From NCBI RefSeq assembly GCF_015852565.1, contig NC_136205.1:3002707-3066706 (forward strand): a stretch of 64,000 nucleotides of DNA, given 5' to 3'. Below the pieces are notes generated by a model, which saw only the letters and a program-made list of their open reading frames with translations, ran no database searches and had not been told where the DNA came from. A program made the translations under genes and the position numbers. This document shows, piece after piece, positions 14,931 through 64,000 of this stretch (positions within the stretch are counted from its first letter, which is position 1; each line of letters starts with the position of its first letter). Source of the stretch: Branchiostoma floridae. Lineage: Eukaryota.

Positions 14931-15352
14931 ATTAAGAAAAAAAAAATTAAATTGGCACAGCTTTAATAAGGACTTCTGTTACTCATTCACTCACTATCCA
15001 TTGTTAAAGAGTCGATTTAGTTCAATTGAAAATGGAATTTAGCAAATTCAGACAGGTTTGACATCAGAAAAATACACCGTCAGGAGATAGATTGGCAAAT
15101 GATTCTGGCTAATATACACTTAGGATACTGGCATTTTCTTTTACATTTTGATGCCTATCAGACATCTCCCTAAGACATTCTGGCTAGAGTGCTGCTTCTT
15201 GCCACTATTCCATGGTAGTTAGCAGTTTCATCAAAGAGAGAGTGTGTTGCATATCTGTCAAGTAAATTTTCTGTTTTCATTTGCATCATATGTTTGACAG
15301 AGATTGGCTTTGCTAGTAGTCCTTTTCTGACGATTCTCTCTTGACTTTGCAG

Positions 15353-15773
15353 GGAATGGGGTCCAATCCGTCAGCAGCTCCACACATGGCTGGCCGTCCC
15401 AACAACCCTCTAAACTTCCCCAGCGGTGGTGGTGGGGTAAACTTTCCCCAGGGGGGTGGGGCTGGCATGAACATGGCCCAGCCTGGCAACACCATCGGTG
15501 TCCAACAGGGAGGTGTTAATCTTCCCCAGGGTGTTGGTATGACCCGCCCTCCAGGCGCAAATACTGGCATGAACTTTCCCCAGGGCGTAAATAGCAGCTT
15601 GAGCCATCCCCAGAGTGGTAATGGTGGTATGAACCACCCCCAGGGTGTAAACACAGGCATTCCCCACACCCAGGGAGTCAACAGTGGCATGAGCCGCCCC
15701 CAGAGTGGCCAGAGCAACATGAGCTCCCAAGGCTCGGTCTTCCCATCACAACAGGGTGGCAACATCAACCAAG
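15353..15773 (+). CDS. NCOA: NCOA homolog exon 13, G/N/P/Q low-complexity repeats (G(M/V)N(F/H)PQGVN x about 7)
   Basis: Acceptor ctttgcAG and donor GTGAGA. The long ORF 15341-15787 has imperfect 9-10 aa repeats. Confidence 0.7.
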
Positions 15774-16238
15774 GTGAGATCTTTTGATAGATGGAATTAA
15801 AGTTTTTATATAATGTAGTAATTGTGTCTAAGTTTTAGGAGCAATATGTTGGAAGCACTTACTATGTTGCTTTTTATTTTACAGAAAGCTTTTTGCTTCT
15901 TTCGACAATACACTACAAAGTGTTGTCTACTGAGATTTGAATGTGGTTTTAGAGAACTGATACTTATAACTTTTAAACTAATGGCAAAATTAAGGTCAAA
16001 ATTGAAAGGGCTTGGCAGATGTACACTGATTTGAGTAATGATGAAGAAGAAAAAGATGTCTATATCCATTATTGTCATGATAGATAAATAGTTTTGTTGC
16101 CTTTTTAATGTTACCTATAAGTCCGTAAAAATACTAAAACTCTAGAAAACTTTGATTAAAATCGCATAGTTTGAAAATGACATCTGATATTCTTGAATAT
16201 GACATAACTTAATGATTCTACGATTCTCTTCTCTACAG

Positions 16239-16714
16239 GTTTTCAAGCCAGACCAGGCATGTCGGGGCAGCCCCCCCAGCTGCGCGCCCGTATGGTACGG
16301 CCCGCCAACCTGTCCATCAACCAGCAGATGATGGGGTCCAACATCAGGGGTCAGAATGCAGGCATGATGTCACCCAGCGCCATGACCTCACTCGTCAGCA
16401 TGACCCCTGGCCCCATCGTTTCGCCCAATCAGGTGGCTCCGCCGAACCAGATCTCGCCGTCGGCTCAGTTGATGACGTCCAAGACGATGTCAATGCAGGC
16501 AACCAATCAAATGCCGGGAATGGGTCCACCGCTAATGTCGCCCAATCAGATGACAGCTCCAAGGTCAAGGACACCGTCCAGCCCAGGGATGACATCACCC
16601 ATCTTGATGACATCACCGAACCAGATGGTGCCGCCCAATCAGATGGCAGGAAATCCTGTGACATCACAGGGCGGAATGGTCTCTCCTTTGACACCTCGGA
16701 TGCCTTATGGACAG
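16239..16714 (+). CDS. NCOA: NCOA homolog exon 14, (M/V)(S/P)PNQ(M/I/V) repeat region
   Basis: Acceptor ctctacAG and donor GTGCTC. The ORF has six or more SPNQM-like repeats. Confidence 0.7.
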
Positions 16715-17107
16715 GTGCTCTTACTGGTTTTCATTTAGCAACTTTCAATTTAAATCATCTATGATTCAATGCAGAAAACAGCCTATGAAGGTTTTCTTCC
16801 AGAAATAACAAGGCATTAGAGGTGGTGAACAACCCCTAATCTGATTAAATTTGGCTTTATATGTTGGCCTACCCAACATTCTGATGCAGATCATTTAAAT
16901 TAGTGATGAAAATAAGATTTTCAGATATGACACCGTTGTTCCAATGAAACCAACATGCATGTACCCACGTATTTGATGCTTATTAAGACATCTTTCTATT
17001 GTAAACCTTAAATGTTATAGAACACCCTTAAGATGATGTAGAGGTTACACAAGATAAAACTCAGTTTACAGCAGAATGAAAAATGTATTTTCTTTCTCGT
17101 CAAACAG

Positions 17108-17171
17108 ATGGGCCCTACAGGAAGTTCCATGATGCCACAGCGTCCTTCCAACATGCACAGCATCCAGCAAG
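17108..17171 (+). CDS. NCOA: NCOA homolog exon 15 (MGPTGSSMMPQRPSNMHSIQQ)
   Basis: A 64 nt exon between acceptor caaacAG and donor GTGAGA. Phase 0-in and 1-out, which is required by its neighbours. Confidence 0.6.
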
Positions 17172-17573
17172 GTGAGACATTCCTAACAAGTTAGATTGAC
17201 AGCATTGAAATTACAGTAGCGGCATCTTAGTATATGCAAATAGCTTTATGGCAAGAATGTGCAATAATCTTATTGTTATTATGGCCAATTGAGCAAAACT
17301 ATGATGTATTTTGGTTAAACTGTTAATTTTGATTTCAATCCAAAATGATTTCAATTACAAAAATTATTTTGGTCAGGTCTAGGAGTCTTGCTAATTTATT
17401 GTTTAACCATTATTTTCCAATATGATGATTTGAAAGGATTCTTCACATTGAAGAACACACATTGTAAAAAAGAATATCCCTCATTCTTGCTAACTAGGCA
17501 TGTACAATGCATTAAGGTCTCTATGTAATTAAAAAAAGTTCACAATATGTTTTGTCTTTACCATGTTAAACAG

Positions 17574-17779
17574 GTGGGTTTTCAGGACCACATCAAGCCC
17601 AGATGGCTGTACCAGTGTCCCAGAACTCCTTACCGAGGATGCAGCAGCGTTCTCCTATGGGGCAGCCACGGCTGGGCCAGTCTGCAATACATGGTATGGC
17701 ACAACTGTCACCGAGACGGGCACAGGCACCGCAGGGGATGGGCCACTCTGTGCAAGACAGGAACCAGGACTTTTCAATG
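17574..17779 (+). CDS. NCOA: NCOA homolog exon 16 (GGFSGPHQAQMAVPVSQNSLPRMQQRSPMGQPRLGQSAIHGMAQLSPRRAQAPQGMGHSVQDRNQDFSM)
   Basis: Acceptor gttaaacAG and donor GTACGG. Phase consistent. Confidence 0.7.
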
Positions 17780-18357
17780 GTACGGACAGAGCAAGATAGA
17801 TTGACTGGATTTTGAGAATCTTAACACAACCATTTTAACACCCGTGACAGTTTTGTAGCAGTGTTTTGAAAGTAACTGTCCTTGTTTTTAGGTTAGATCC
17901 AGTAAGATTAGCTACTAAGAAATTCAATATTGAAATAGTATTTATTATATATGTTTGTTAGTGGACTGAATAAAGTATCAATTTTACATATAGACAATTG
18001 TCAAAGATAGGCTTTGATCAGTCACAAATTTATCATTGTTAATAATATTTACGATTATCATGACTGAGCCATTTTATTTTTACATGTCACTTTAAAAGTT
18101 TAGAATTGATTGTAACTTCAATAATCGTTAAGTTCAGCAAGTGAGTTAATCTCATTTCTTTTATTATATGATAATTCCAGAACATGCTTTTTCTTTGTTG
18201 TTTGGATTTTCTATTCCTATGAAATGTCTTGTGAAATGAAGATGTTTTAAGTCTGAAAATGGATTCCTCACATATACATGTATTCAACTTGCTTCTGTCA
18301 ACAGACAGGTTGTGCAATATTTCAGCAAATGACTTAATCTTGTCTCTTCTATTCCAG

Positions 18358-18571
18358 AACAACCAAATGAATCAGGGGAATGCAGGAGGAATGGCACAGT
18401 CGCCCTTCAACCAGCTCTTGTCCCCGACATCCTCCGGTCCTAATCAGCTCTTGTCCCCAGTGTCCTCTGGTCCAGGTCAGCTCTTGTCCCCAGTGTCCTC
18501 AGTAGCCCCCAGACCCAACTTCATGCCATCTGCTGCTACGTCGAGCAGCAGTCAGATGCAGTCATATGCTG
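18358..18571 (+). CDS. NCOA: NCOA homolog exon 17 (NNQMNQGNAGGMAQSPFNQLLSPTSSGPNQLLSPVSSGPGQLLSPVSS...SQMQSYAG), 3x QLLSP(V/T)SSGP repeat
   Basis: Acceptor ctattccAG and donor GTAAGT. Internal 30-nt tandem repeats. Confidence 0.7.
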
Positions 18572-18999
18572 GTAAGTCATGACTTGTATCTGAATTGTTG
18601 TCCGTTGTTATGACTTATAATGTAAAGACAACCTTAAGTTGGTGTGCTACCTTGATTATAACTTGAAACCTCACACCTTTTTGTGTATAGGACTGTGCCA
18701 ATCTTTGTTTCTATAGCTCACAGAGCCACAAGAAGGCTAGTGTTCTTGATAGAGTAACACAAATTAATACAGTCAAACCTGTCTATGGCAACCAATCATA
18801 GAACTTGAAAAGAAAATGGTCACTGCAGACAGGTGGCTGCTATATATAGGAATCTTAATTGTAGTAACTGTAGAAAAATTATCTGATTTAAAGGACCATC
18901 AAAAATAAGTCTCAAAGGCCAGGCAGTCCCTTTACAGACTCAAGACAGCCCCTAATGCAAGTTGTAGATGATGAACATTTTTTTTTCTCCACCATGCAG

Positions 19000-26464: not shown

Positions 26465-26900
26465 TAGCCTCACTAGGGCTGGGTACTGGTACAGAAAATT
26501 CAGGTCCAGGTCCGGTTCAGGTCCAAAGGATCAGGTCCAGGTCCGGACCTGAACTTGGACCTGATGCAGTATGACTCATACCAATGGTCCATATCACTAC
26601 AAAGAAATCTGTTTGGTGGAGTATTAGACTTACACTGGCGTTTTAAAATCCTACAACGCTAACTGCACCTGTACAATTGGCTGTAAAACTTGGTAGAAAT
26701 TACTATAAACTCTACACTACTTCGCTCTTGTTATTTTCTTCCACCTGCAAGTGCCAAAACGTGTGAATGCCTGATAAAATAATCTGTTAATTTTCTAATC
26801 GGTCCAACATCCGGTCAACCTAATTTTTTCAGGTCCGGTTTTTCTGGACCGGTCCAATAAGAAAAACCGGTTTTGTACCGGTAAGCCCTAAGCCTCACCG
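26465..26900 (+). mobile_element. MITE (~435 bp) with TIR CTAGGGCTGGGTAC.GGTAC and an internal palindrome GGTCCAGGTCCGGTTCAGGTCC...GGACCTGAACTTGGACC. This is copy 1 of 3.
   Basis: Near-identical copies at 31067-31500 (inverted) and 33637-34075. Confidence 0.8.
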
Positions 26901-29029: not shown

Positions 29030-29132
29030 ATGGATGGTAAAGAGAAATACAAGATGGTGCGGAGATGTTTCTCGGTTGGATCCATCACGAAGATCTTGCT
29101 CTGTTTTACTTTCTTGGTGATTTCAAGAAGAG
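29030..29132 (+). CDS. EGF-kringle membrane protein, exon 1 (MDGKEKYKMVRRCFSVGSITKILLCFTFLVISRR), candidate signal peptide
   Basis: ATG in Kozak context with a hydrophobic core, then donor G|GTGAGT at 29133. The exit phase (1) matches the entry phase of exon 2 at 34273. Confidence 0.5.
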
Positions 29133-31066: not shown

Positions 31067-31500
31067 GCTATTAGGGCTGGGTATCGGTACAGCGTACCGG
31101 TACAAAACCGGTTTTTCTTATTGGACCGGTCCAGAAAAACCTTACCTGAAAAAATTAGGTGGACCGGATGTTGGACCGATTAGAAAATTAACAGATTATT
31201 TTATCAGGCATTCACACGTTTTGGCGCTTGCAGGTGGAAGAAAATAACAAGAGTGAAGTAGAATGGAGTTTATAGTAATTTCTACCAAGTTTTACAGTCA
31301 ATCGTACAGATGCAGTTAGCGTTGTAGGGTTTTAAAACGCCAGTGTAAGTCTAATACTCCACCAAACAGATGTCTTTGTAGTGAAATGGACCATTGGCAT
31401 GAGTCATACTGAATCAGGTCCGGGTTCAGGTCCGAACCTGGACCTGATCCTTTGGACCTGAACCGGACCTGGACCTGAATTTTCTGTACCGGTACCCACC
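31067..31500 (-). mobile_element. MITE copy 2 (inverted orientation), flanked by a (GTTT)n microsatellite at 31570-31600
   Basis: Reverse complement of 26465-26900 and 33637-34075. Confidence 0.8.
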
Positions 31501-32559
31501 CCTAGTGGCTATAGTCATTTTAAGAATGTAGATTCTGAAGTAATTTTTCACCTAGTTCAAGGCGTAGGTATTGTTTTCGTTCTTTTGTTTGTTTGTTTGT
31601 TTGTTTGAAGTGATATGTGTTGAACATTGTTTCTGCTGGCCCGGCTCCAAGTTTGTTCCCGGGATGAGTTGTAACCAGAGACTAACAGGATGCGAAGACT
31701 GATCTGGCCTACTTCAGAATGTCTTAAGAAGGCAGGAAGTGAACACATGGCCAAAAGTTGGGAACCCGAGGAGGGCATGTACCCGAGAGTGTAGAATGAA
31801 ATGTGTAAATTAAACGAGGTTGTGCAATATTTTTCAAGAAATTAACAAAATCTTTCTGCTATTCATTTGTGTGTGATGTGTACAAAAAAAGTGGAATAGA
31901 GGGTGATCACCCGAAAGTAAGTCGTTGTAATCAGATCTGTGTTCTTAACGTGTGGCTACTGTCATTTGAACACTTTAGGCATGATTTGTTGATTTGCGGA
32001 GTGGTGTACAGGGTCCTTCATTTTCTGGTACTCTCTTTACCTCAATGGCTTTCATGACTCATCGATGGACCCTCAGACGGGGTCTTGTTTATGTGTTGCC
32101 ATAGCAACGGCGCCATAAGGGAGCCAGGCATAAGAGTGCTTCCTGTCACCCTAAGAAATTATAATACTGATTAATGTATATATTTTCCTGCTTTTTTGGT
32201 ACTTCCTTATAATCATCGCTCTTTGCGGCAACATGAATGATTTCCAAAACCATATCCAGTTGCTTGTCAATGAGTAACTACTATTTGTCGTAAAAGCTAT
32301 AGATGCCCAACGTTCATCGACGTATGAAAAAATTCTCTTTTCTCCACTAGCTGGAAACAAGACTCATCTTTTGATAAGTCTAGAAGTATTTTTAAATGAA
32401 GACCTATGGTCAAGTATATATATGACTCCAGTTTATTGTATGTATTTTTTAATATGTGAATATTAGGGAAAGCTATATTTCTTGCCGGTTTACAAAAGAC
32501 TTATAATAGATTACGAAGATTTCCTCCTGACCCTTATAGAAAGTCTTTGGTCGTTGACA

Positions 32560-33050: not shown

Positions 33051-33636
33051 TTGTAAATATTATATACCATGTGTAAAATAGATTAGTCTCTTAGATTTTT
33101 AGATACTAGTAATTCATGTAGTGTTCTGTTCTGTATGTATTGTATGTACAAGTTGCCAAACACTGTATCCTCTACAGTTGTGCAATAAAGTTCTTCTTCT
33201 TCTTCTGTTCATTGTACGACCGTAGTACAATCACAATCTCGGGTCATTGTTATGATAGTCTTGCAGACATATGTCATATAGCAAACTTCAGCTGTCTTGT
33301 TAAGGACTCTGTCTTGTCTTCCTTGTCGGCGGTTGATTTTGTCACTGCTTGAAAAATTCCATTATAGCAAAATTGTAAAACGGCTATAGCTAATGACGAA
33401 TTTGACCGCGAATAGAGTCTTGACCCTTAGTTTTGATCTCTCCCTCCTCAGACCCTGCCCTGACCGTTGTGAACCAGAGCCCGCTGATGAAAATATTATA
33501 CGGCATAATTATGTACTATTGTGTGTAAGTAGCTTGATAAAAGGCTACGAGGAAAATATTTTGTATTTTTGTGAAAATATTGCCTTTCTAGTATTGGCTT
33601 TTTTTAGAAATAGATACCTGACCATTAGTCTTAACT

Positions 33637-34075
33637 AGGGGTGGGTACACCGGTACAGAAAATTCAGGTCCAGGTCCGGTTCAGGTCCAGATGATCAGGT
33701 CCAGGTCCGGACCTGAACCTGGACCTGATTCAGTATGACTCATACCAATGGTCCATTTCACTACAAAGAAATCTGTTTGGTGGAGTATTAGACTTACACT
33801 CAGCGTTTTCAAACCCTACAACGCTACCTGCACCTGTACGATTGGCTTTAAAACTTGGTAGAAATTACTATAAATTCTACTCTACTTCACCCTTGTTATT
33901 TTCTTCCACCTGCAAGCGCCAAAACGTGTGAATGCCTGTTAAAATAATCTGTTAATGTTCTAATCGGTCCAACATCCGGTCCACCTAATTTTTTCAGGTC
34001 CGGTTTTTCTGGACCGGTCCAATAAGAAAAATCGGTTTTGTACCGGTACGCTGTACCGATACCCAGCCCTAGTCT
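33637..34075 (+). mobile_element. MITE copy 3, followed by a (CAAA)n microsatellite at 34196-34250, immediately upstream of EGF-kringle gene exon 2
   Basis: Same family. The MITE plus spacer plus microsatellite unit is an inverted duplicate of 31067-31600. Confidence 0.8.
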
Positions 34076-34272
34076 TAACCATGCCCTCCCCAGACCCTGT
34101 CGTGGCGCGTTGTATTTCATCTGACCCTTAGCTTCCTCATGACCTCAATAAGAAAACGGTCTTCATGCCAATTAGAGATTCTCATGAATGAATAAAGGTT
34201 CAAACAAACAAACAAACAAACAAACAAACAAACAAACAAACAAACAAACAATCTTGACCTTGCCCTCCCCAG

Positions 34273-34399
34273 ACCCTGCCCTGGCGCTGACCGTGGTGAA
34301 CCAGAGCCCGCTGATGGACCCCATCAACACGTCATACATCAAGTGTGTCACGGATGAGCCGGGCGAGTTCGTCACCTTCTCGGCTGTGGACGAGTTCGC
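34273..34399 (+). CDS. EGF-kringle membrane protein, exon 2 (DPALALTVVNQSPLMDPINTSYIKCVTDEPGEFVTFSAVDEFA)
   Basis: Acceptor ctccccAG and donor GC|GTGAGT. Phase consistent on both sides. Confidence 0.65.
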
Positions 34400-41678: not shown

Positions 41679-41798
41679 AAATCGACGAGTGTTTGTCCGA
41701 CCCTTGCATGAACGGGGGCACGTGTTACGACTTCATGAACTACTACGTCTGTGACTGTAGGTTTGGATTCGCTGGGGACCATTGCGAGGACGAGCTCG
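41679..41798 (+). CDS. EGF-kringle membrane protein, exon 14: cbEGF (EIDECLSDPCMNGGTCYDFMNYYVCDCRFGFAGDHCEDEL)
   Basis: Acceptor ttatccAG and donor G|GTAAGA. Confidence 0.85.
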
Positions 41799-41949
41799 GT
41801 AAGATTTGCATATCGAATTTGCATAAATGGGAATCGTTTTGTTGCATACATGATAATTTGACATTCTTTCCGTCGAAGGGTGTTGTCCCGAAAAACATTC
41901 CTGTATTCATTTGTCAAAGAATCAAAAGCACCGCGAATATTTTTCCATA

Positions 41950-42060
41950 ACAGTAAGAGACTACAGTGCATCGTGCTACCACGAAATTAAAACCACCGCG
42001 AAAAGTCCATTTTCCCGTTACCGCGAAATTAAATCCCCGCGAACTTAAATGCATTTACAG
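41950..42060. repeat. Dispersed repeat (...CCACCGCGAAAAGTCCATTTTCCCGTTACCGCGAAATTAAATCCCCGCGAACTTAAATGCATTTAC)
   Basis: A reverse-complement copy lies at 63840-63965 at the window end. Confidence 0.7.
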
Positions 42061-42340
42061 TACTTTGTAGAATACCATTGCCAGAATGCTGCCCATGAAG
42101 AATTCAATATTCCTTTGTCAGCATTTTATTTAAAAAGCATCATAAGCCTACAATAAATCTCTACCCCTAAGACGTTGTCAGAATTTTTCGTCTATTGCAG
42201 AAATAGACTACTGGCTAGAATACCATTGCCAGAATGCTGCCCATAAAGAATTCAATATTCCATGTCAGCATTTCTTTTAAAAAGTGAACCCTTAAGGCGT
42301 CACCAGAATTATGTATCTAAAAAAATATTTCGTATTTTGC
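42040..42340 (+). repeat. Tandem ~150 bp duplication in the intron upstream of exon 15. It carries two decayed copies of the exon-15 acceptor plus exon start (GCAGAAATAGACTACTGGCTAGAATACCATTGCCAGAATGCTGCCC...).
   Basis: Copies at about 42048-42130 and 42195-42275 resemble the authentic 42335-42400 (gcAGAAATAGACTACTGTCTGCAAAACCAGTGCCAGAACTCTGCCCGC). Confidence 0.75.
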
Positions 42341-42342
42341 AG

Positions 42343-42456
42343 AAATAGACTACTGTCTGCAAAACCAGTGCCAGAACTCTGCCCGCTGTGTCAGTGGTAA
42401 CAGGAGCTACATGTGCCTGTGTTCCATTGAATACACCGGCGACTACTGCGAGCAAA
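42343..42456 (+). CDS. EGF-kringle membrane protein, exon 15: EGF (EIDYCLQNQCQNSARCVSGNRSYMCLCSIEYTGDYCEQ)
   Basis: Acceptor tattttgcAG and donor A|GTAAGT. Confidence 0.8.
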
Positions 42457-42894
42457 GTAAGTCTTAATAAATCTGTTTTATTATTTTTTTTGCAGAAAAA
42501 TGGCTATGACGTGTGGTTTCATGATTTTACATGCAATTACAGCTTTATGAGTGTACCCACATTAGTGCAAAAATGCAAAGTTATACGCCAAGATCCCCTT
42601 GTGATACGACTTTTTGATCTACTGTATGGGGACATTTTTCAGTTTTGAAGTTGCAGTATTCTCTCTATTGTGGCAGCTTTACAATACCTCAAACCAATTT
42701 TCAGATCGGAAAGGAAAAACATACGCCGCGAAATACACCTCGCTATTGTAAGCTTGGCTGTAGTTTTGATTCCGGATGTTTGGATTTAGTATCAGTGTGG
42801 ATGTTTTGTTGATAAATTCTTGAATAAGGTGCTTCATTAAGTTTCTAAAAGTAGGCTCAGGGTATGCTCTATGTTTCCTTTAACTGTACTGTAG

Positions 42895-43110
42895 TGGCGA
42901 TAGTGTGGAGTAATTGGTAGCGCATTCGAATCGGTGCAAAAGGTTCCGAGTTCGATACCCCCCATGCCCACACGTTGTGCTCTAGGGAAAGGCACTTTAC
43001 ACGACTTTCCCTGACGGTGGAGTGATGCCCACCGAGCCTCTACTCACTATGGATTTGGTGCGTCAAGGTGCCAACATCTGCTTGTTGGACTCCCTCCGAG
43101 AGCCGTTAAA
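42895..43110. mobile_element. tRNA-derived SINE copy (GGTTCCGAGTTCGATACCCC...GGCACTTTACACGACTTTCCCTGACGGTGGAGTGATG...)
   Basis: Same family as the copies at 3285 and 53690. Sits in an intron of the EGF-kringle gene. Confidence 0.65.
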
Positions 43111-43306
43111 TCTATTAATTTTTATTACTGTACTGTAGTATTTATCTCATCTCATGTTAAATTTAAGCTTATTATCGTGTATTGTTTTATCACATTTTGT
43201 TTCATATCGTTTACTTCCCTTTATTTCAAGATTTAGTTTAGTACAATTCTTCCGTTATTCTGTATTGTTTTATCACATTTTATTTTTTTTTCGTTTCATT
43301 TGAAGA

Positions 43307-43529
43307 TTTGGCGGACTTTGAAAAAATTCCAACCGCCAACATAATCGCAGCTGCCATCGCGTCCATAGTTGTGATCGCCGCGATCGCGCTGGGGGCGTAC
43401 CTGTACATCAAGTCGTACGAGGCACAGCGCGTCATCCCTCTAAAGAAGAAAGACACGCCGTTGGTTAACGCAGAGGAAGGGAAAGAGGCGAAAAAGAAGG
43501 GGTCACATCTTTCAGAAAGCACGGTGTGA
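43307..43529 (+). CDS. EGF-kringle membrane protein, terminal exon: juxtamembrane segment, TM helix (IIAAAIASIVVIAAIALGAYLYI) and a 45-aa basic cytoplasmic tail ending in a stop
   Basis: Acceptor tcatttgaAG. A 23-residue hydrophobic helix followed by KSYEAQR...KKKGSHLSESTV*. There is no kinase or other cytoplasmic domain. Confidence 0.8.
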
Positions 43530-45583: not shown

Positions 45584-46422
45584 TCACATATATACCAGTT
45601 GGCGTGGAAAGATGGTCACAGTACGGAGCTGTACGTTCGCCACCACCAACTGTCCGTCCGGCCCCATGGCAACACCAGCTGGGTTGGTAATGTTCGCGAG
45701 GGTGCGGACAAAATCCCCACGGCTTGTATACATGTCAACCGCCTCTGGTTGCAATTTCGTCACAATGATGCGACCCAAAGTGTCCAAGCAAATACCTCGT
45801 GGAATACCCGACCGTCCTTCTAGTCCAAGTGTCCTGAATGTGACTAGCCTTGCCCCGTAGCGGTTGTAGACCTGGATTTTATTCGCGGTCGATACCAAGA
45901 TGTTTCCCTCGCTGTCTGTGGTTACATATGACACGGGGAACTTTCGTCTCTCCTCAAATTTCAGATGAAGCGAGCCGTTCGACTGGTAGATCAGAACTCC
46001 ACGCATGCTGGTCACGATGACTTTGTGGTCAGTCACGCCAACTGCAATGCCAGGATTCACGGACACGAAGTTGACGTCAAACGTGAACAGAGGCTGCCCA
46101 TTGCGTCTGTACTGCACCACATGTGCTTTAACATTAATATTCTTCCTCTTCCCCACTACCCACAAATGCCCCTCTCCGTCCACGGCGACATCGCTTGGTT
46201 GCATTTTCTTCACCGCGACCCCAGGGACGATTGTTCGGAAGAAGCGGCGATAGGCTCCGCTTATGTTGTAGACATGGACCCTTCTCTTCTGGAAATCAGT
46301 CACGAAGATCTCGTTGTCAGCAGAGACAGCCACTCCACGGTGACTTCGAATTTGGTTTAGTGAGCCTCCTCCCGTCCCAACCGGGACAACCATCAGTGTT
46401 CGGTCATTAATGTCATGGGAAC
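45584..46422 (-). CDS. NPxY/NHL gene copy A, NHL-repeat beta-propeller exon (six NHL repeats, ...FVTDFQKRRVHVYN...GHLWVVGKR...VIVTSM...GNILVST...RIIVT...GQLVVAN...). Terminal exon.
   Basis: Acceptor tttcactgcAG at 46424-23 (phase 1). 269+ aa are open to the stop. NHL signatures match the TRIM-NHL/teneurin-type propeller. Confidence 0.8.
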
Positions 46423-47995
46423 CTGCAGTGAAAGGAAGAGGATGCGATCAATGATAACCTGGCCCTGGTACGAACGTTCGAACAAAGCCTGTTACAGTTA
46501 GCAAAACTAAGAAAATTTTTTCATTCGGGCAACCAGCACGACCGGATGATGATGAAAGAAATCTTAGTAATTCCCAGGAAAGAAATAATGGCTTTTTTAT
46601 GTAAACTATGCAAGTTAGGTCCGCATTTGCATATCCTGTGTCTGTTTATGTTTATGTTTATCTGCCAGAACTTACACATGTTGCATGTATAAAAGTCCTT
46701 TAGTGGGGAAAATAATAGATGGGATAATTTCCTAAATGATTATCCAAATTTATTTTTGTGTACCTCTCCCTAAGCTACTTACGTGCCAAATATTATGGAA
46801 ATTTGTTCAATTATCTCTGCATTTGCATATACTGTGTTAAACCTGCCAGAAATTACACGTTACATGTATCTAAGTCCTTCACTATGGAAAATAATAGATG
46901 AGAGGATGTCCTGATTAATCATTCAAATTTATTTGTCAGCATCTCTTCATCAGCTACCTGGGTTCCTTTGTCACCTTTTGTTCAAGTATCTCCTTGGAAA
47001 GAATAAAAACGCCCCAGCGGTTCCAGAGCAAGCTCCAGAGGTGCCCGAACCTACACTTCTTATTATATATTGACAAAAACTATCTTCCACTAAAAATCAA
47101 GACCAAAGCATGTCCAAGACAAAAGATTACCATGTGACGTGCTTGAGATTGACGACAGCGTTGGCGTTGTTATCCCAAAGGGACCACTGGCAGTCGTGAC
47201 CTAGTAAGAGAATACGAATGGTCTAATAAACGTGTGATCTAGTCAGTGTGTTTGTTTGTTTGTTTGTCTTTCTGTGCGTTCGAAGTTTTGCCGATATTCT
47301 AGCAGCATGAAAGGGGGCATGGAAGAGTTGCAGCATGGAAGGGGGAAGTGGTGTAATAGGATACTTGCAGAATTGAAAATATGGATAGGCTGCAAAACCA
47401 TGTAGCACATTACATTGTTTTGTTTGTTAAGAGACCAGATTCTGGTCTTCAGTAGCTTCAGATAGATCGTTTCCGTTAAGGGTATGAAAAAGTGATCTGT
47501 AGAAATATGAAATACGTGATCTATAACCAATAGGAAGCGTGACAAGCATTCTCTCCCACCGTTAAGTCCTCAGGGGCCTCTGACGTCATTGTCGTCCTGC
47601 CAGAAGGACAACAGATGGGGCGATCCGGGGTATGGATCGGTCTTGATTTCTGCTGTCGATGGGAGACATTGTCATAAAGTCATTGAGTCACACACTAAAG
47701 TGGTCATCTCATGAGACTGCGCCAAATTGCGCGAGGAAATTACGTAAAATGTAAAAAAAAAATCCTTTGTGGTTATACGAACGTGCGACGCAATTTCGTA
47801 TGAAGCCCATATAAGAAGATTATTGAAAAGATATTATTAAATGTATAAACTGCCCTGTTTCACGCCGCTTGCGCCTATTTTGCGAACATTTAGCAAAGGA
47901 AACTATCAGATGAAAGAGTTGGAAGAATACCAGCTGCAGGCTAGAAGTAAGAAGAGAAAGCCAAAAACAGACGGTACACGAGATCGAGAGGGTAC

Positions 47996-48120
47996 CATTG
48001 GAGCATTCGGCGTGCTGTTGTTGATGAATGCAAACTTTAAACTTCCACCGATGACCAATGACAACAGGGTAACAGCTGTACATGCGAAGACAGCAACGTA
48101 CTCCCACCGCAATTTCAAAA
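47996..48120 (-). CDS. NPxY/NHL gene copy A, candidate TM exon (VLKLRWEYVAVFACTAVTLLSLVIGGSLKFAFINNSTPNAPM)
   Basis: Acceptor cctttacAG and donor ATG|GTACCC. Phase 1-in, but phase 0-out, which does not match the NHL exon (needs 1). Usage is uncertain and possibly isoform-specific. Confidence 0.45.
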
Positions 48121-48516
48121 CTGTAAAGGCATATTTTAGGACACCGTAATACCGTCCAAAGGAAAAAATCATGATAATAGAAGTAGCATTCTTAGTGTTA
48201 GTAAACACTAAGAAAAAGGCCGCATATATGAACATTTTCTGTAAAACAGATTACGTTCTAGCTTAATGAGCAGAAAACCAACCATTGAAACTTGAAAATG
48301 ATGTTTTGAAGTGATGTTTTACTTGTAGAATTCTGTCAGTTTGTTTGATCAAACCAAAGGCACCGTGCGAGAATAGGATAAGATATGTTACATGTTACAT
48401 AGGATGCTACATTTACGTCAGGTGGAAACAAAAGTGAGTCCATTCATTTGAAAAATAAGATCGCTACCCATTACTTGAAGCCTAAGCCATGACAAGGTCA
48501 CAAAAGACAATCTTAC

Positions 48517-49732
48517 CACCAACGTTCTGTTGGGGACCGTTTTTCACGTGCATTGGTGCCTGATTTGCCTGAACGGTGCCATGTGTGATGGAGCTGCATC
48601 TTTCTGACCTGGTGGAGGTATCGTCATCCCCACCTGTGTATGCGACTGCGTAAGGTTCAATGTGGACATCGTCAGGGCTGACATCTTGCGTTCGTTCGTT
48701 CTTGGTCACGTTTCTTCTAGCTTCCATGTCTTCATCGTTCTCATACCTAACCGCATATGGTTCGATGTCGGCATTGCCAGGGATACTGCTTTGTATTTGT
48801 CCTCTCCCTATCGCATTATTACGTCTGGTAACGATGCCATCATTGTCATCATCTGTCTGGTATCTAACAGCATACGGAATGATGTTAAAACTCTCACCAG
48901 TGTCTGTTTGCCAGGAGGCAGATTTACCCGCTTCGGTGTCCCGACTTGCTTGTGGCTCAATGTCTGTATCCGCTTTGGGGTTCAGATCTTCCGCCGTTGT
49001 TTCGACAGTTCCTGATGATGTTGCAGTTCCTGATGTTATGAGGGTTGTATCCGACTCTGATGCAGGTAATGAAGGGTCAGGGGCGTACATGGGATTATGG
49101 TCGCATGATTTTGGCTGGTACCCCGAGGTGCAGTTTAGTGCGTTTTGCCCGTACATCGGATTGGGGGTTTCAGTGTCTGCGACATTTTGCGCGTACATCT
49201 GATTCCGGGCTTGGTCATTCTGGACGCATGCCGTAAGTGGATAGAGTACATTAGAGCGATGTAGAGTATTAACCGTGTTTCCGTCATTTCTAACAAGATC
49301 GATCTTAGCATCATTCTTAGTTGCATCGCATCCTTCAATGTTTGTTAAGGTGTTATCGGTGTTGTTCTGTTCAACGTAAGATTCCGTTGTTTCACTCTCT
49401 TCTGAAACTGTCTTGAAACACACCATGTGATCCTGACAAATGTAAGTAACTTTATGTGGTACAATATGGGCATCACCATGGTTACAATCGACAGTCGGGG
49501 CGATTTCATCAATAGCATCACCCTCTGTGGGGCTGCTCTCACCATCAATGTAGTCGTCGTCGCCATCTTTTTTACATCTGAGATCATATGGCCTGGTGAA
49601 GAGATCGCCATCATTGTCAGCCTGGCTGTAAGCAAGGTCAGTAGTTGTAGAATTCAGACCTGCTGGAGTCGTCTCGTCTTGCTGTAAATCTCCCGTGTTG
49701 TCACCCACTGAGACGTTGTCATCCTGTTGCAT
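48517..49732 (-). CDS. NPxY/NHL gene copy A, exon 1: acidic S/T/D-rich N-terminal region. It has 3x N(P/Q)MY motifs and 3x (I/E)PYAV(R/A)Y repeats.
   Basis: ATG at 49732 (ttatgcaacagG context). The 416-aa ORF is open to the donor G|GTAAGA at 48516-15 (phase 1). No signal peptide. Confidence 0.7.
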
Positions 49733-50339
49733 AAAGTCAACGATGTTGTAAAAAATGCCTTAACGCGCTACTCCCTTACAGAAAGCAAGTCACAAGCGAT
49801 CACAAATGAACCTTTATATGGATTAACGAATTTCAATGCCTTCTTGGTAATAATGTTCTGATGGGTATAAAGAACATTACTATCTATTTCTGATTTCGAA
49901 ATTGTAGGGATTCTTTTGGTTAGATTCCTGCCATACATATTTGCGACAATAATGGTCATTCTAAAGTTTCACAAAACCCTTTAAAATTCCTTCAACAATA
50001 AATGCTATTATATTTTGAAATTCTAATTCGTTCTTACAGCTTTTCTATTCCGTAACATCGCCATAGCCTATAGAATGTGGCCTTTTTGCAAATTTGCGCT
50101 ATTCCTCTCAGACATATACAGTATACGCATATTACATTGTCTATGAAAAATGTTAACATTCTTTTCAGCCAAACATTACAAGATCTATCAGCATAAAACT
50201 TAGTCACAATGAAAACAGTCAGACAATTAGGATTCTCTTTAGATCTTTCATGCAACCAATTAAAGAAAAAAAAAATTAACTATTTTTTCTCTTCCAGTAC
50301 AATCATTCCTCGTCCAATTTTTTCACGAAAAAATCAATT

Positions 50340-57642: not shown

Positions 57643-58313
57643 CTGTCGATGGTACGTCCACTCGAAACAGTTCGATTTATTCGAATGGAGCCCGTGTGAT
57701 AAGCCCGGGCCGTACGGAAAGTTATCACCCGGTCCGGAACACCCGTATCGAACGTTTTTGCGTCACAGGTATGACATAATAGTATTTATTGCTGAAAAAA
57801 GTCGAACAATATCTCCCACCCTATTTAGTTAATGGTTGTCTTAAGAACTATTGTTCTCGCAAACAGTTTGTTAGGCCTAAGCTTATAAGAAAAAAGGGTG
57901 ACATTACCGACCATGCCAGTAAAACCTGCCAACCCTAACCTTTTGGAGGGATAAAACACTGTAAAAGGACATAAAAAAACTTCCGTCACCTTATTTCTGC
58001 TGCAATAGACAAGTGTGTTTGAATTGATGTATGTCTAAAATGTGATGTTGATAATGGCAGTGCTCTCGTGCATTCCAGTTTTACATTATCAAAATTTCTC
58101 ATAGGATCACTTGGACAGAAATCTAAACAAAGCCCTACAATTTCAAAAACAGAAATACATAGTTATGCCCTTTATACCTGTCACAACATTTTCGCTAAGA
58201 AGGCATCAACATCTGTTGATTCATATAAAGGATGTTCATTTGTGACGATAATTGACATCGTAAGAGTTTTGCTTTCTGTAAGGAAGTAGCGTGTAAATTA
58301 TTTTACAACATCG

Positions 58314-59565
58314 TTGACGTTATACAACCAGGATGACCACATCTCACTAGAGGAAAACACAGGCGATCTACAGCAAGACGAGACGACTCCAGCAGGTCTG
58401 AATTCTGGAAATACTGAACCTGCTTCCAGCCAGGCTGACAATGATGGCGATCTCTTCACCAGGCCATATGATCTCAGATGTACCGAAGATGGCAAAGACG
58501 ACTACATTGATGATGAGAGCAGTCCCACAGAAGGTGATGCTGCGGATGAAATCGCACCGACTGTCGATTGTAACCATGGTGATGCCCATATTGTGCCATA
58601 CAAAGTTACTGACACGTGCCAGGATCACATGGTGTGCTTGAAGACAGTTTCAGAAGAGAGTGAAATAACGGAATCTTGCGTTGAACATAACAACACTGAT
58701 AACACCTTCACAAACATGGATGAATGTGACCCAACTAAGAGTGATGCTAAGATCGATACTGTCGTAAATAACGGAACCACGGTTAATACTCCACACTGCT
58801 CTAATGTACTCTATCCACTAACGACATGCGTCACGAATGTCCAAGCCCGGAATCAGATGTACACGCAAAATGCCGCAAACTCTGAAAACCCCAATCCGAT
58901 GTACGCGCAAAACGCCATAAACTGTGCCTCGGTGTACAAGCCAAAAGCCTGCGACCCTAATCCGATGTACGCCCCTGACCTTCCATTACATGCAACAGAG
59001 TCGGATACAACCCTCATAACATCAGGAACTGCAACATCATCAGGAACTGTCGAAACAACCGCGGAAGATCTTAACCCCAAAGCGGATACAGACATTGAGG
59101 CACAAGCAAGTCGGGATACCGAAGCTGGTAAATCTGCCTCCTGGCAAACAGACACTGGTGAGTGTTTCAACATCACGCCGTATGCTGTTAGATACCAGAC
59201 AGATGATGACAATGATGGCATCGTTACCAGAAGTAATAATGAGACAAGTAGAGGACAAACACAAAGCAGTATCCCTGGCAATGTCGACATCGAACCATAT
59301 GCGGTTAGGTATGAGAACGATGAAGACCTTGCAGCTAGAAGAAACGCAGCCAAGAACGAACGAACGCAAGATGTCAGCCCTGACGATGTCCACATTGAAC
59401 CGTACGCAGTCGCATACACGGGCGGGGATGACGATACCTCCACCAGGTCAGAAAGATGCAGCTCCACCACACATGGCACCGTTCTGGGGGGCAACAGTGA
59501 TGCGCGTGGCGTTAGAGATCAGGCACCGATGCATGTGCAAAACGGCCCCCAACAAAACTTTGGAG
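58314..59565 (+). CDS. NPxY/NHL gene copy B, exon 1 (acidic N-terminal region with NPMY x2, NQMY and PYAV(R/A)Y x3). The initiator ATG seen in copy A is mutated here (ATG to ATA plus a 1-nt indel).
   Basis: The ORF is open over 58314-59565 to donor G|GTAAGA, but it has no in-frame ATG until residue ~100. It is about 87% identical to copy A. Confidence 0.55.
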
Positions 59566-59812
59566 GTAAGATTGTCTATTGTGGCCATGTGCATATAACG
59601 GCTTAGACTTTGCGTAATGGACATCTATCTTACTTGCTCTAATGAAAGTGTCAACTTTTGTCAAAACCTGATGTGAATATAACAAAGCAAAAAATTTAAT
59701 ATCTGAGGCCTTTTGCTTTACTAGCACTGTAATCTTTAATACTACTTCTTTATCATTTTGATTTTTTTTTCCTTTGGATGTTATTATGGTGTCCTAAAAT
59801 ATGCTTTTACAG

Positions 59813-59937
59813 GGTTGCAAGTTCGATGGAAGTACGTCGCTGTCCTCATATGCACAGCTGCTGCCCTGTTGTCATTGGTCATTGGAGGAAGTTTAAGTTT
59901 CGCATTCATCAACAACAACACGCCGAATTCTCCTATG
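59813..59937 (+). CDS. NPxY/NHL gene copy B, candidate TM exon (LQVRWKYVAVLICTAAALLSLVIGGSLSFAFINNNTPNSPM)
   Basis: Acceptor gcttttacAG and donor ATG|GTACGC. Same phase problem as copy A. Confidence 0.45.
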
Positions 59938-61628
59938 GTACGCTTTCGTATACCGTTTTTTTTTTTGCTTTGTCTTCTTATCTTTAGCCTGGTATTCTTC
60001 CTCTTCTGGCGCACCTTCTTTCCGCTGATAGTTTCCTTTGTTAAATTTTCTTAAGAAGCGACGAGCGTTATCTCACTGGACTGCGCCAGATTGCACAAAG
60101 CTTTCACAAAAATTGTGCAAACCGACCCAAATTGGCACTGATCCGTGTAATGTGTAGTCTGAAATCGTGATTTTGTTAGACATTGCATTTACAAAATAGG
60201 CGCAAAGCAGCGCGAAACAGTGTAGTTTATACATTTAATGATATATAGATCTGCAAGTTCCAATAACCTGCTTATACGGGCTTCATATGCAATTGCGTCG
60301 CACATCAGCGAAACCACAAGAGAAAATTGGCATGTCGACCTCGCGCATGTTGGCATAGTCTTGTGAGATAACCACTTTAGTAATGACTTAAGTATGTGCC
60401 ATAGTCTTGTGAGATAACCACTTTAGTATGTGGCTCATCAAATTCATGACAATGTCTTCCATCGAGAGCAGAAATCAAGACCAATCCATACCTCGGATCG
60501 TCCCATCTGTTGTACTTCTGGCCATGGGTGGACGACAAAACCTGAGCTGACGTCAATAGCCCCTGAGGACTTTAAGGTAAGAAGAATGCTTAACAAGCTT
60601 CTTTACTTTTCAGCCATACTTCCAGTTTCCGATAGGTAGATGAAAGCACATATTTCATACTGTAAGCGTTTTGTCATGTGAAGTTAAGCAAACAAAATAA
60701 TGTAAGGTGCTACGCACTCATACAAAGATGTTGCAGCCATCAAGACATTGAATTGTCAGAAAGCTGTTTCAAATTCCTTGGAACTTCTGCATCACTTAAT
60801 CTTTTATTTGTTTTAGCAAACCGATAAGATGTCGAAGGATTATGACATTACCTTCTGATTTATCTATCTTATTTACTTATAATATTTGTTACATAAAAAA
60901 ACTTAACTCAAAGTGGTACCAAAGTCTACATACTGCAACATTGGACAAGAGTCTAACCATATTTTCAATTCTCTAAGTATCTGTTTACATCACTTCATGC
61001 TGTCACTTGGGAATATCAGCACGACTTCGAACGCACAGAAACTGATTAGAATATCATTGTTTTCACGCGTTAATGAGTTCATTCGTATTCTCTAACTAGA
61101 GCACGACTGCCAGTGATCCTTTTGGGGCAACAACGCCAACACTCTCGCCAATCTCAAGTACATCACACGGTAATAGTTTGTCTTGGACATGCTATGGTTT
61201 TGAATTTTGGTCAAGATAGCCTTTCATGGTTAGAAAAAGGAGAATAGACTTGTGCACCTTCTGAGTTTGCTCTGTAACCGAATATGATTCAAATTTAAAG
61301 GAGATGATATTCAGCATGCAGGCAGCTAATATAAGGAAAAGATGAACACAATAAAATACAAATCACGTAGATTAGGACTTAGTTGGATAATTGAATAGGA
61401 AATTAACTACCCCTCTTGTTTTTCCTAAAAAAAGACTTTAATATATTTAACGTATGTAATTTCTGAGAGGTTTAACAGTAGGCAGACACACGATATGCAA
61501 CTGCGGACTTAACTTGTATAATTCCTACAAAAATGACCTACTTTTAAAATTTTCTTTACGCAATTGTGACAGGCCTTTTTGTACCAGACCAAGTTATCAT
61601 TGATCGAATCCTCTTCCTTTTACTGTAG

Positions 61629-62479
61629 TTTCTCATGACAATAATGACAACTCAGAAAAGGTTGTCGTCGTCGGAAAGGAAGGAAGCACAATAATTGAAG
61701 GTCGAAGTCACCGTGGAGTGGCTGTCTCTGCTGACAACGAGATCTTCGTGACTGATTTCCAGAAGAGAAGGGTCCATGTCTACAACATAAGCGGAGCCTA
61801 TCGCCGCTTCTTCCGAACAGTCGTCCCTGGGGTCGCGGTGAGGAAAATGCAACCAAGCGATGTCGCCCTGGACGGAGAGGGGCATTTGTGGGTAGTGGGG
61901 AAGAGGAAGAATATTAATAAGAAAGCACATGTGGTGCAGTACAGACGCAATGGGCAGCCTCTGTTCACGTTTGACGTCAACTTCGTGTCCGTGAATCCTG
62001 GCATTGCATTTGACGCGACTGACCACAAAGTCATCGTGACCAGTATGAGTGGAGTTCTGATCTACCAGTCGAACGGCTCGCTGCATCTGAGATTTGAGGA
62101 GAGACGAAAGTTCCCAGTGTCATACGTAACCACAGACAGCGAGGGAAACATCTTTGTCTCGACCCCGGGTGAAATCCAGGTCTATAATCGCTATGGGGCA
62201 AGGCTATTCACATTCAGGGCACGTGGACTACAAAAAAGATGGTCGGGTGTTTCCCGGGGAATTTGCTTGGACACTTTGGGCCGCATCATTGTGACGAAAT
62301 TGCAACCAGAGGCGGTTGACATGTATACAAGCCGTGGGGGTTTTGTCCGCACCATCGCGAACATTACCAACCCAGCTGGTGTTGCCATGGGGCCGGACGG
62401 ACAGTTGGTGGTGGCGAACGTACAGCTCCGTACTGTGACCATCTTTCCACGCCAACTGGTATATCTGTCAGACAACTAA
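61629..62479 (+). CDS. NPxY/NHL gene copy B, NHL-repeat beta-propeller terminal exon
   Basis: Acceptor ttttactgtAG at 61627-28 (phase 1). Open to TAA at 62477-79. About 93% aa identity to copy A. Confidence 0.8.
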
Positions 62480-64000
62480 AGAGCAAAACGCCAAATGGTA
62501 CATTAATCAGACAATTAAAGAGCAAAAGAGTGAACAAACTCCTTCTCGGACATACGTGATCTTCACTAAAAACAGAACATTCTTCATTAATTTTCATAGC
62601 TACTCAGTCACACAGCCAGGACAGCGCATCAAAAATGTTTGATGTTCATTTGATTAAAGAGACTTAAATAAAAGAATGAAGGCTGTAGATGTGAACATAG
62701 AACTGTTCTTACAACAGCGTAGCAATAAAAGAATATACAAGAAAGAAAAAAATATCGGTAAAACGACAGATACATCACCTTGGCTCAAATACCATGATGC
62801 TTAGTGCAGTGAATGTATCTGAGTGATTGTAGAAAACAAAATGTAGTATGGTGTTGTTATTGGGGTTACAACAATTTTCTTCAATCAATGACTGTTTTGT
62901 TAAGGTACAGTACATACCTCCTAAATTTTCGATGTATAACAGCACATCTTCGTCACGGGGAATGACCTAGTCTCAATCTCGCGAGAAAACGAGACTAGGC
63001 CAGGCTTGCGTGGATCATCTCTCCCCGCCTCCTTGCGGAGAAGGGGTAGGTACGTAGGACTTGGGCAGCTCCCAACCCATTGGTTGAAGAAAATTGTTGT
63101 AACTGTATGCATACGTTACTGATGAACCTCTTCAAAGGTGTTGCTATTGTTTTTCTATGAATTATACTTTGAAAGTCGATAATGTTCGTAGCTTTAAGTA
63201 GATCTCTGCTGACATAACTTTGTGTAAAAAAATACAATGCGTAGTGCAATGAATGTATCCGAGTGATAGTAGGAAACAAAATGCAATATGGTGTTGTTAT
63301 TTTTCTATGAATTGCATTTTGAAAGAATGAAACAATGGTGTTAGCTTTAAGCAGTGTTTTTCTAACATAACTTTGTGCAAAAATATCAAGCTAGAGTTAT
63401 ATTCGGGAAAGAAAAGACACAGCTTTCCAAAATGTTTAATTTTGAGACAATCAGTATTCAATATTGAGAAAATATTATAGTTTCTGTATCTATTAGTAAA
63501 TAAACTCAAATTTCACGGCCGCCAATGTTAAAAAAAGGCAGACATGACGTGTGATTTGAGTAGTCTGTGATTGGTCGCACTTCAGTGTAAAACACTTTAT
63601 TGTGATAATATGTAATAGGTTCTGCTAATTGATGTTTTTAAACTGGTCAGTCTAAGGCTAAATTCAAAGATTGCTTAAAACTGACATTGACAGAAAATAG
63701 ATGTCAAGTGAAACTGTAAAATAATGTTATGAAATTAATCTAATAAAAAATCCAACAAAATCTTCCGCATATGTGTATCTGTATATCTGGTATAACCGCT
63801 CTTCGGCGCATCATCAACAGCAGCTTTGCAGCAGCTGGTTATACTGTAAATGCATTTAAGTTCGCGGGGATTTAATTTCGCGGTAGCTATAGCGGGAAAA
63901 GGGACTTTTCGCGGTGGTTTTAAGTTCGCGGTAGCACCATGCACTGTAGTCTCCTACTGCCATGGATAAATATTCGCGGTGGTATCAAATTAAAGTGGCC

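Follow-up and report, generated by a model that had tools for sequence, protein, structure and literature searches.

The intron preceding exon 15 of an EGF-domain gene in the amphioxus Branchiostoma floridae contains sequences that resemble the start of that exon. This raises the question of what these sequences are, how they arose, and whether they may be read as splice sites. The original prediction regarded them as relics of a tandem duplication of the exon boundary, with retained acceptors that could act as decoy or cryptic 3' splice sites. We analyzed the locus in the window, that is, the whole stretch of 64,000 nucleotides to which the positions in this text refer, and compared it with the corresponding loci of other haplotypes and species. 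From the evolutionary pattern obtained, we consider it probable (about 0.82) that the sequences are what remains of two rounds of local tandem duplication, a relic that has no function and is slowly decaying.

The source DNA is that of an animal, and the plus strand of the window shows EGF patterns, a kringle, and Tie-like EGFs. When the EGF and Tie-like exons alone were used as the query, generic EGF proteins were obtained; when a near-full-length model was used, the search led to fibropellin-1-like. The host gene is the B. floridae gene "fibropellin-1-like", a membrane-protein gene of 16 exons. Our model of exons 2 to 16 has AG and GT at all junctions of its 15 exons and an open frame of 662 aa, with a transmembrane segment and a stop at its end. 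Its identity to XP_035660179.1, the B. floridae fibropellin-1-like protein, is about 100%, and XP_078584916.1, which comes from a B. floridae x B. japonicum hybrid assembly, is the same as the model at every residue. Because the model matches both proteins, the annotated splicing uses the downstream acceptor. That is, the authentic exon 15 junction, 42342/42343, is the one used in both NCBI annotations, and it is the only exon 15 junction in them. In B. belcheri and B. lanceolatum, the fibropellin-1-like protein retains at least 90% identity, and the peptide encoded by exon 15 is 97% conserved.

Intron 14 and the start of exon 15 together form an array of three tandem units at positions 41890-42384, so its left edge lies about 150 nt further upstream than 42040, where it had been placed originally. 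The order of the segments is (A0 B0 C1)(A1 B1 C2)(A2 B2 C3), followed by D, the remaining part of exon 15. One unit consists of about 100 nt of the 3' end of the intron (segments A and B, acceptor included) and, as segment C, the opening 42 nt of exon 15. Segment A is about 43 nt of intron ('aattcaatattcctttgtcagcatttt.tttaaaaag'), and segment B is the 3' end of the intron that carries the acceptor. The positions of these segments are listed in Table 1.

Table 1. Segments of the array and neighbouring exons of fibropellin-1-like, with positions in the window
Feature	Position	Strand	Remarks
Exon 1	29030-29131
Exon 14, EGF domain	41679-41798	+	phase 1 at its end, donor GTAAGA; model and XP_035660179.1/XP_078584916.1 match
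A0, intron segment A of unit 1	41890-41929	+	local alignment score against A1/A2 reached by 13 of 2000 shuffles
MITE remnant, 5'-truncated, inserted in C1	41930-42060	+	ends in the false 'tttacAG' acceptor of unit 1
C1 remainder	42061-42094	+	TA target site and last 32 nt of the unit-1 copy; 34 nt in all
A1, duplicated intron segment A of unit 2	42095-42138	+	aligns to intron 14 of B. lanceolatum L006
B1, duplicated intron 3' end	42139-42200	+	intact decoy acceptor, cag at 42198-42200
C2, pseudo-exon copy of exon 15 positions 1-42	42201-42242	+	35/42 identical to 42343-42384
A2, intron segment A of unit 3	42243-42285	+	in-frame TAA at 42278-42280
B2, working 3' end of intron 14	42286-42342	+	carries the authentic acceptor (cag at 42340-42342), consistent with the NCBI proteins
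C3, source copy within exon 15	42343-42384	+	contiguous with D
D, never duplicated	42385-42456	+	remainder of exon 15
Exon 15, EGF domain	42343-42456	+	phase 1-1; C3 (42343-42384) and D (42385-42456); 114 nt

The two tandem units proposed directly upstream of exon 15 were recovered by several comparisons. A repeat finder gave a family of three members (42034-42094, 42182-42242, and 42324-42384), whose start-to-start distances were 148 and 142 nt, and a second family in which 42056-42113 resembles 42204-42261 at 90%. A single shifted alignment covered 42068-42242 against 42216-42384, the copies being head-to-tail and adjacent. In the BLAST comparison within the 64-kb window, unit 1 and unit 2 showed 93% identity over 70 nt (E 5e-24), unit 2 and the exon-15 boundary showed 84% over 55 nt (42188-42242 versus 42330-42384, E 1.4e-11), and further copies of the unit numbered zero. 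Dispersed copies with the arrangement A-B-C were found neither in the window nor in the six fetched loci, in which the matches were local only. The array is not an artefact of the polypyrimidine tract, because the match extends 42 nt into the exon at 35/42 identity. The start of exon 15 is thus copied as proposed, but the exonic part is 42 nt (42201-42242 copies 42343-42384) and not the expected 60 nt or so.

Tandem Repeats Finder did not report the array in this region of the window or in the other B. floridae haplotype, even at a minimum score of 30, since its copies are too diverged and interrupted. An Rfam scan of 41700-42600 matched no family. A fourth partial unit was also considered at about 42467-42498, past exon 15 ('aataaatct ... 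ttttttgcagaaa'); it consists of just 9-mer and 11-mer low-complexity matches, and we treated it as a product of chance.

In order to place the array among related sequences, six comparative loci were used. One (L001) is from the B. floridae reference assembly and represents a haplotype other than that of the window. Two are from B. belcheri (L002 and L003), a third B. belcheri haplotype (L005) is that of a hybrid, and two are from B. lanceolatum (L004 and L006). The exon-15 boundary sequence gave three matches each in the window and L001, and one match in each of the other five loci. Because these five B. belcheri and B. lanceolatum haplotypes carry a single copy of the boundary, the array is, among the haplotypes sampled, confined to B. 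floridae. The order A-B-C is common to all three units and to the single-copy sequence of the sister species, and intron 14 is between 248 and 945 nt long in the haplotypes compared.

The part of the units that follows the 42 exonic nucleotides, '...HKEFNIPCQHFF', had been taken for decayed exon. When segment A was compared with the other 72 nt of exon 15, the similarity was at the chance level (shuffle p about 0.5-0.8), and this candidate was rejected. In contrast, A1 and A2 align to a place about 85-125 nt upstream of the acceptor in intron 14 of L006, with scores of 39 and 32, respectively, each of which was reached by 0 of 2000 shuffles. Because segment A matches the L006 intron and not the rest of exon 15, the stretch in question is duplicated intron. 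That is, judging from these alignments, segments A and B are duplicated intron sequence orthologous to the single-copy intron of the sister species. The interpretation of the array as a relic of a tandem duplication of the exon boundary is therefore well supported by the pattern as a whole, in which intron and exon stand head-to-tail in their native order and five sister-species haplotypes have a single copy.

We then consider the similarity of the copies to each other. The units are 81-93% alike and are not near-identical. C1 and C2 share 39 of 42 positions (93%), while C1 and the exon share 34 and C2 and the exon share 35. A1 and A2 are 88% identical, and B0 and B1 are 83% identical. A0 is the most diverged copy of A. 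B2 is the copy of B nearest to the sister-species sequence (86% to L006), and C3, which is 81-83% identical to C1 and C2, is 95% identical to the B. lanceolatum exon. As a separate observation, the changes in C1 and C2 are clustered, with 6 of them in 15 nt, and such clustering is not what simple clock-like decay predicts.

These values suggest how the array may have been formed. The segment first duplicated would be about 145 bp long, with its left end in the intron, about 100 nt before the exon-15 acceptor, and its right end 42 nt into the exon. The array starts after 'gtCCC', and segment C ends with 'tgCCC' (in the exon, 42380-42384). The junction between C and A thus lies on a CCC microhomology of 3 nt, which would fit either replication slippage or microhomology-mediated repair. 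Since C1 groups with C2, A1 with A2, and B0 with B1, whereas A0, B2, and C3 stand apart, we suppose, from segments that are short, that a first round duplicated (A B C) and that, after a period of divergence, a second round duplicated [B C A] in a shifted register.

The age of the first round can be considered from the divergence between units, which is 17-25%. The divergence of introns between B. floridae and B. lanceolatum in the same region is 14-24%. Because these two values are similar, the first duplication would be old, perhaps as old as the split of the two species. It could then be argued that the array is older than this split and was lost in B. lanceolatum, with the condition of B. 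belcheri being either ancestral or also the result of a loss. The size of the between-unit divergence agrees with such a history, as do the great proneness of intron 14 to insertions and deletions, which is evident from its range of lengths, and the presence of an analogous array at exon 2 in both B. floridae and B. lanceolatum. However, a second copy of C has left no trace in the two B. lanceolatum and three B. belcheri haplotypes, and a single gain is more parsimonious than a gain followed by a clean loss. We therefore think that this history is unlikely, and that a gain in the B. floridae lineage accounts better for the relic.

Unit 1 has been altered by an inserted element. The full element is present in L001 at 14592-14799, where it is 208 bp long, has TA at both ends, and splits C1. 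Its terminal inverted repeats, CTGTAAATGCA...GTTCGCGG, match at about 24 of 28 positions, and a second copy lies at 63844-63991 of the window on the minus strand. That is, the element is short and non-coding, possesses terminal inverted repeats and a TA target-site duplication, and occurs in multiple copies. From these features, the insert at 41930-42060 is identified as the remnant of a MITE of the Tc1/mariner type. In the window haplotype, a deletion of 155 nt took B0, the first 8 nt of C1, the upstream copy of TA, and the 5' part of the MITE. As a result of this deletion, the MITE terminus 'tttacag' mimics an acceptor. The acceptor copy ascribed to unit 1 is therefore absent in the window: the 'tttacAG' at 42054-42060 is the terminus of the MITE, and 34 nt of the exon-derived segment are left behind it. 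A motif inside the MITE, 'cagtaagagactacag', which is like 'cagaaatagactactg', was also considered as a copy of an acceptor; we regard it as chance, because the second, unrelated copy of the MITE, at the window end, has it too.

In L001, unit 1 is complete, but its acceptor reads CAT instead of CAG. A separate deletion of 79 nt in this haplotype took C1's end together with the whole of A1 and the first part of B1. Thus, both B. floridae haplotypes derive from three units and differ by internal deletions (n = 2 haplotypes). Unit 2 is intact in both, with 1 difference across the 85 nt of C2 and A2. This near-identity is compatible with neutrality at a heterozygosity of about 2-3%, and also with constraint. 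The original prediction attributed the decay to substitutions. Substitutions are indeed present, but the decay has also proceeded by transposon insertion and by haplotype-specific deletions. The haplotypes thus show that the MITE entered a TA of C1, that the acceptor of unit 1 changed from CAG to CAT in one haplotype, and that each haplotype lost a different part of unit 1.

The presence of a MITE within unit 1 might suggest that the copies were brought by a mobile element, and assembly error might also be suspected, as the assemblies of amphioxus are prone to misassembly of haplotypes and tandem sequences (PMC4284660). The MITE, however, interrupts a unit and does not flank one, and unit 2 has no MITE. 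No further A-B-C unit occurs in the window or the fetched loci, and A and B are orthologous to the local intron of the sister species. With regard to assembly error, the array is found in two independent B. floridae assemblies, in which its internal deletions differ. Both origins are thus very improbable, and the array is not a case of transposon exonisation.

Another explanation is that the units serve as versions of exon 15 that are spliced alternatively or in a mutually exclusive manner. In its favour, they stand in tandem, unit 2 begins in the phase of exon 15, and 15 of the 19 nt before its acceptor AG agree with the authentic acceptor. Yet just 42 of the 114 exon nucleotides are copied, and the first Cys codon of C2 has changed from TGT to TGG. 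The translation of unit 2 is, as originally given, EIDYWLEYHCQNAAHKEFNIPCQHFF followed by a stop, which is reached 26 codons in. The window has no consensus donor for such an exon but only a weak AAA/GTGAAC, whose GT starts at 42284 (AAG/GTGAAC in L001). Moreover, unit 1 is broken by the MITE and by deletions, and the units are not conserved in the sister species. The partial copy, the stop, and the weak donor refute a tandem alternative exon 15 at the sequence level, and we regard this explanation as extremely improbable. The same comparison can be made with tandem exon duplication in general, which reportedly gives rise to alternative splicing with mutually exclusive exons. The array resembles such duplications in having copies of exon sequence in tandem within a gene; it differs from them in that they involve entire exons, in which the frame is open and the two splice sites are present, whereas the array has 42 nt, a stop, and, in the window, no consensus donor.

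The preceding results leave unit 2 as the carrier of the only intact decoy acceptor of the array. The retained acceptors, which were described as ttgcAG/AAATAGAC, are thus confirmed for unit 2 (AG at 42199-42200), but not for unit 1, where the site is deleted in the window and reads CAT in the other haplotype. In order to estimate the strength of the unit-2 site, we used a crude weight matrix made from this gene's own 15 acceptors. With this matrix, the authentic acceptors of the gene scored from -0.9 to 14, the unit-2 acceptor scored 7.5, and the authentic acceptor of exon 15 also scored 7.5 when it was left out of the matrix. Of the intron's other AGs, the one that would give the junction 41798/42071 had the highest score. 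It is plausible, from these scores, that the AG of unit 2 is a decoy or cryptic 3' splice site. Splicing to it would lengthen exon 15 by 142 nt, shift the frame, and reach the TAA at 42278-42280, and such putative transcripts would probably be subject to nonsense-mediated decay.

The possibility has also to be weighed that unit 2 provides a decoy, or "poison", 3' splice site that is in fact used. That is, in a fraction of transcripts exon 14 would be spliced to 42201, the TAA would be reached, the transcript would be degraded, and the expression of the gene would be tuned in this way. Several properties fit this idea: the unit-2 acceptor is intact with a score equal to the leave-one-out score of the authentic one, it is kept in both B. 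floridae haplotypes, it lies 142 nt nearer to the exon-14 donor, and its use would bring a premature stop and a frameshift. On the other hand, the decoy is absent from the B. belcheri and B. lanceolatum loci, and so lacks the conservation expected of a poison splice site, despite a protein that is at least 90% conserved. Its sister, unit 1, is visibly decaying, and the normal junction alone is found in both NCBI annotations. The decoy-derived peptide had no near-identical match among the predicted proteins of the protein collection, in a search of low power with uncertain coverage of amphioxus transcripts. Equivalent arrays are also common in the gene, with a placement about that of chance. 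Taken together, a working poison site is quite unlikely.

It is similarly improbable that the intact unit-2 acceptor and the similar boundary arrays of the gene are used by the spliceosome. If they were used, amphioxus genes would bear a standing load of lineage-specific decoy splice sites, and the unproductive splicing that these sites cause would reduce or adjust expression. In that case, the arrays would form a natural test bed for the choice of a 3' splice site among duplicated modules of branch point, pyrimidine tract, and AG. In the linear-scanning model, the 3' splice site is chosen as the first AG reached beyond the branch point; the model gives a framework for predicting which of the duplicated modules would be used, although it is a mechanism and not a sequence family. 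For branch points, a search by eye gave no clear yUnAy candidate. The unit-2 site does not have the form of a recursive splice site (AG/GTRAGT), since it reads cag/AAATAG.

We return to the reading of the array as a non-functional relic, and consider why a duplication across a splice site would be tolerated. Only the last copy is contiguous with the remaining part of exon 15 and its donor, and a normal mRNA would therefore still be possible. The same consideration predicts that the authentic copy would be the last one when the duplication is on the acceptor side and the first one when it is on the donor side, and that duplications lying wholly within an exon would be removed. Duplications that straddle a boundary may thus survive because a normal mRNA can still be made.

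To see how common such arrays are, we compared the orthologous gene with itself in each of the seven haplotypes from the three species. Local tandem duplications were frequent in the gene across all seven. Arrays that span an exon boundary occurred at the acceptors of exons 2, 6, 15, and 16 and at the donors of exons 3, 9, and 14. On the acceptor side, the exon-2 array is present in B. floridae and B. lanceolatum and absent in B. belcheri, the exon-6 array is found in one B. belcheri haplotype, and the exon-15 array and the exon-16 array, the latter with a period of 83 nt, are found in B. floridae. On the donor side, the exon-3 array is found in B. belcheri and the exon-9 array in B. lanceolatum, and the exon-14 array of B. 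belcheri has a period of 166 nt; its copy number in three haplotypes is 1, about 2, and 4.7, respectively. The array of the B. belcheri locus L003 was detected by Tandem Repeats Finder.

The gene contains 30 internal boundaries in 14.5 kb, and a duplication of 145 bp placed at random straddles one of them about 30% of the time. Because of this high chance, a special mechanism is unnecessary for the boundary arrays, which are placed about as chance expects. Extreme indel polymorphism has been described in lancelets (PMC4284660). The array at exon 15 is an ordinary by-product of small tandem duplications, whose rate in the introns of amphioxus is very high.

On its own, the array is a minor matter, that is, a lineage-specific intronic relic in one amphioxus gene that the annotated mRNA ignores. 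Its modest value is that of a clean and datable case, in which two haplotypes and two outgroup species indicate that duplications straddling a splice site are tolerated and then decay. The presence of at least seven such arrays across three species in one 14.5-kb gene may offer a resource on splice-site choice, comparable with the minisatellite of human F7. The array also calls for caution in the prediction of amphioxus genes, in which intact pseudo-acceptors can lie less than 150 nt from real ones.

Literature searches for duplicated splice sites on the acceptor side gave nothing specific. Tandem genomic duplication has been reported to produce introns that are new or have shifted (Lehmann et al. 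2010, PMC2891723; Hellsten et al. 2011, PMC3265369). These cases are like the present one in that a small tandem duplication involves coding sequence together with splice signals, and one copy becomes intron. In those cases, however, a proto-splice site within an exon is duplicated and a new intron or intron position results, whereas at exon 15 the position is unchanged and the intron is longer.

The closest described case, by the analogy drawn here, is the minisatellite of human F7. Intron 7 of this gene contains a 37-bp VNTR whose first element spans the exon 7/IVS7 boundary, and the repeats provide a series of 5' pseudo-splice sites that are silent (Borensztajn et al. 2006, PMC1557585). The amphioxus array may be regarded as an older and degenerate mirror image of it on the acceptor side. 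In both, one terminal unit straddles the exon boundary (here the last unit, with 42 nt in exon 15), the intron holds copies of the real splice site near the authentic one, and the authentic one is the copy contiguous with the exon. Unlike in F7, the exon-15 array is on the acceptor side and its authentic copy is the last, not the first; its units are about 145 nt long, 81-93% alike, and interrupted, and it has one intact pseudo-site, whose silence is putative. A direct counterpart of the F7 minisatellite exists in intron 14 itself, namely the donor array of exon 14 in B. belcheri, of which the copy number varies.

Exon 15 was not the only exon of the EGF gene (fibropellin-1-like) that was preceded by decayed copies of its own boundary. 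Upstream of exon 2, too, we found two pseudo-copies, each consisting of the acceptor and about 20-46 nt of the exon, and a dispersed repeat lies between them. The exon-2 triplication was common to both B. lanceolatum haplotypes, at 79-92% identity, and was found in none of the B. belcheri orthologous loci compared. This distribution indicates that the exon-2 triplication is older than the three-unit array at exon 15. The positions of these and the other features are listed in the table.

At the 3' end of intron 15, a tandem duplication was also seen in the window, and it was found in the B. floridae reference locus (L001) as well. The duplicate holds an acceptor-like tttcaag|attta, 5' of the last exon's authentic acceptor, tttgaag|atttgg.

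Self-comparison of the gene's orthologues in B. belcheri and B. lanceolatum revealed further tandem arrays across exon boundaries, some of which reach kilobases, and several arrays confined to introns. Intron 14 of B. belcheri carries an array other than that of B. floridae, with a period of 166 nt. This array starts within exon 14, taking in its last 44 nt, and so repeats the donor site; its copy number was 4.7, about 2 and 1 across three haplotypes. It is directly analogous to the human F7 IVS7 minisatellite, whose first element lies across the boundary of exon 7 and IVS7.

Coordinates of the repeats and neighbouring genes (L001, B. floridae reference; L002, L003 and L005, B. belcheri; L004 and L006, B. 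lanceolatum)
Feature	Position	Remarks
Exon-2 pseudo-copies	window 33433-33489, 34073-34108	compared with exon 2 boundary, 34252-34316
Dispersed repeat between exon-2 pseudo-copies	window 33634-34071	further copies 26472-26886, 31072-31506
Intron 15 3' end, tandem duplication	window 43172-43222 vs 43255-43310	83-nt period
Intron-14 array	L003 14995-15764; L005 17148-17456	L002, single copy
Exon 3 donor tandem array	L002 7738-9127; L005 6441-9789	
Exon 6 acceptor tandem array	L005 11192-11390	
Exon 9 donor tandem array	L004 11540-11823; L006 12164-12447	
MITE copies	window 63844-64000, 41930-42060; L001 14592-14799	63844-64000 on minus strand
ORF pairs	window 45587-49759; 58290-62476	minus; plus strand
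Large upstream gene	window ~9900-18600	plus strand; exons rich in Gln, Ser, Pro

The segment directly 3' of the exon-15 donor (aataaatct...ttttttgcagaaa, window 42467-42498) resembles a unit B segment with the acceptor. Since this likeness is backed only by short matches (9-mers and 11-mers) within low-complexity sequence, it is probably due to chance, and we rejected the segment as a copy of the array unit.

Comparison of window 41799-43305 with L001 14382-16961 indicates that the window is a haplotype distinct from the B. floridae reference. Intron 14 is 544 nt long in the window versus about 620 nt in L001, and intron 15 is 849 nt versus about 1846 nt. The protein encoded in the window differs from XP_035660179.1 at two residues and is identical to XP_078584916.1, from a B. 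floridae x B. japonicum hybrid assembly.

We also observed a 208-bp MITE family with a TA target-site duplication, terminal inverted repeats CTGTAAATGCA and internal repeats ACCGCGAA. The copy at the end of the window probably continues past its edge.

Directly downstream of the EGF gene are two pairs of long ORFs, of about 290 aa (...GPDGQLVVANVQLRTVTIFPRQLVY) and about 430 aa. The two pairs seem to be copies of a single gene, duplicated in inverted orientation, and by eye the shorter ORF resembles NHL-repeat sequence. The large upstream gene contains a 687-aa open segment (10938-12998).
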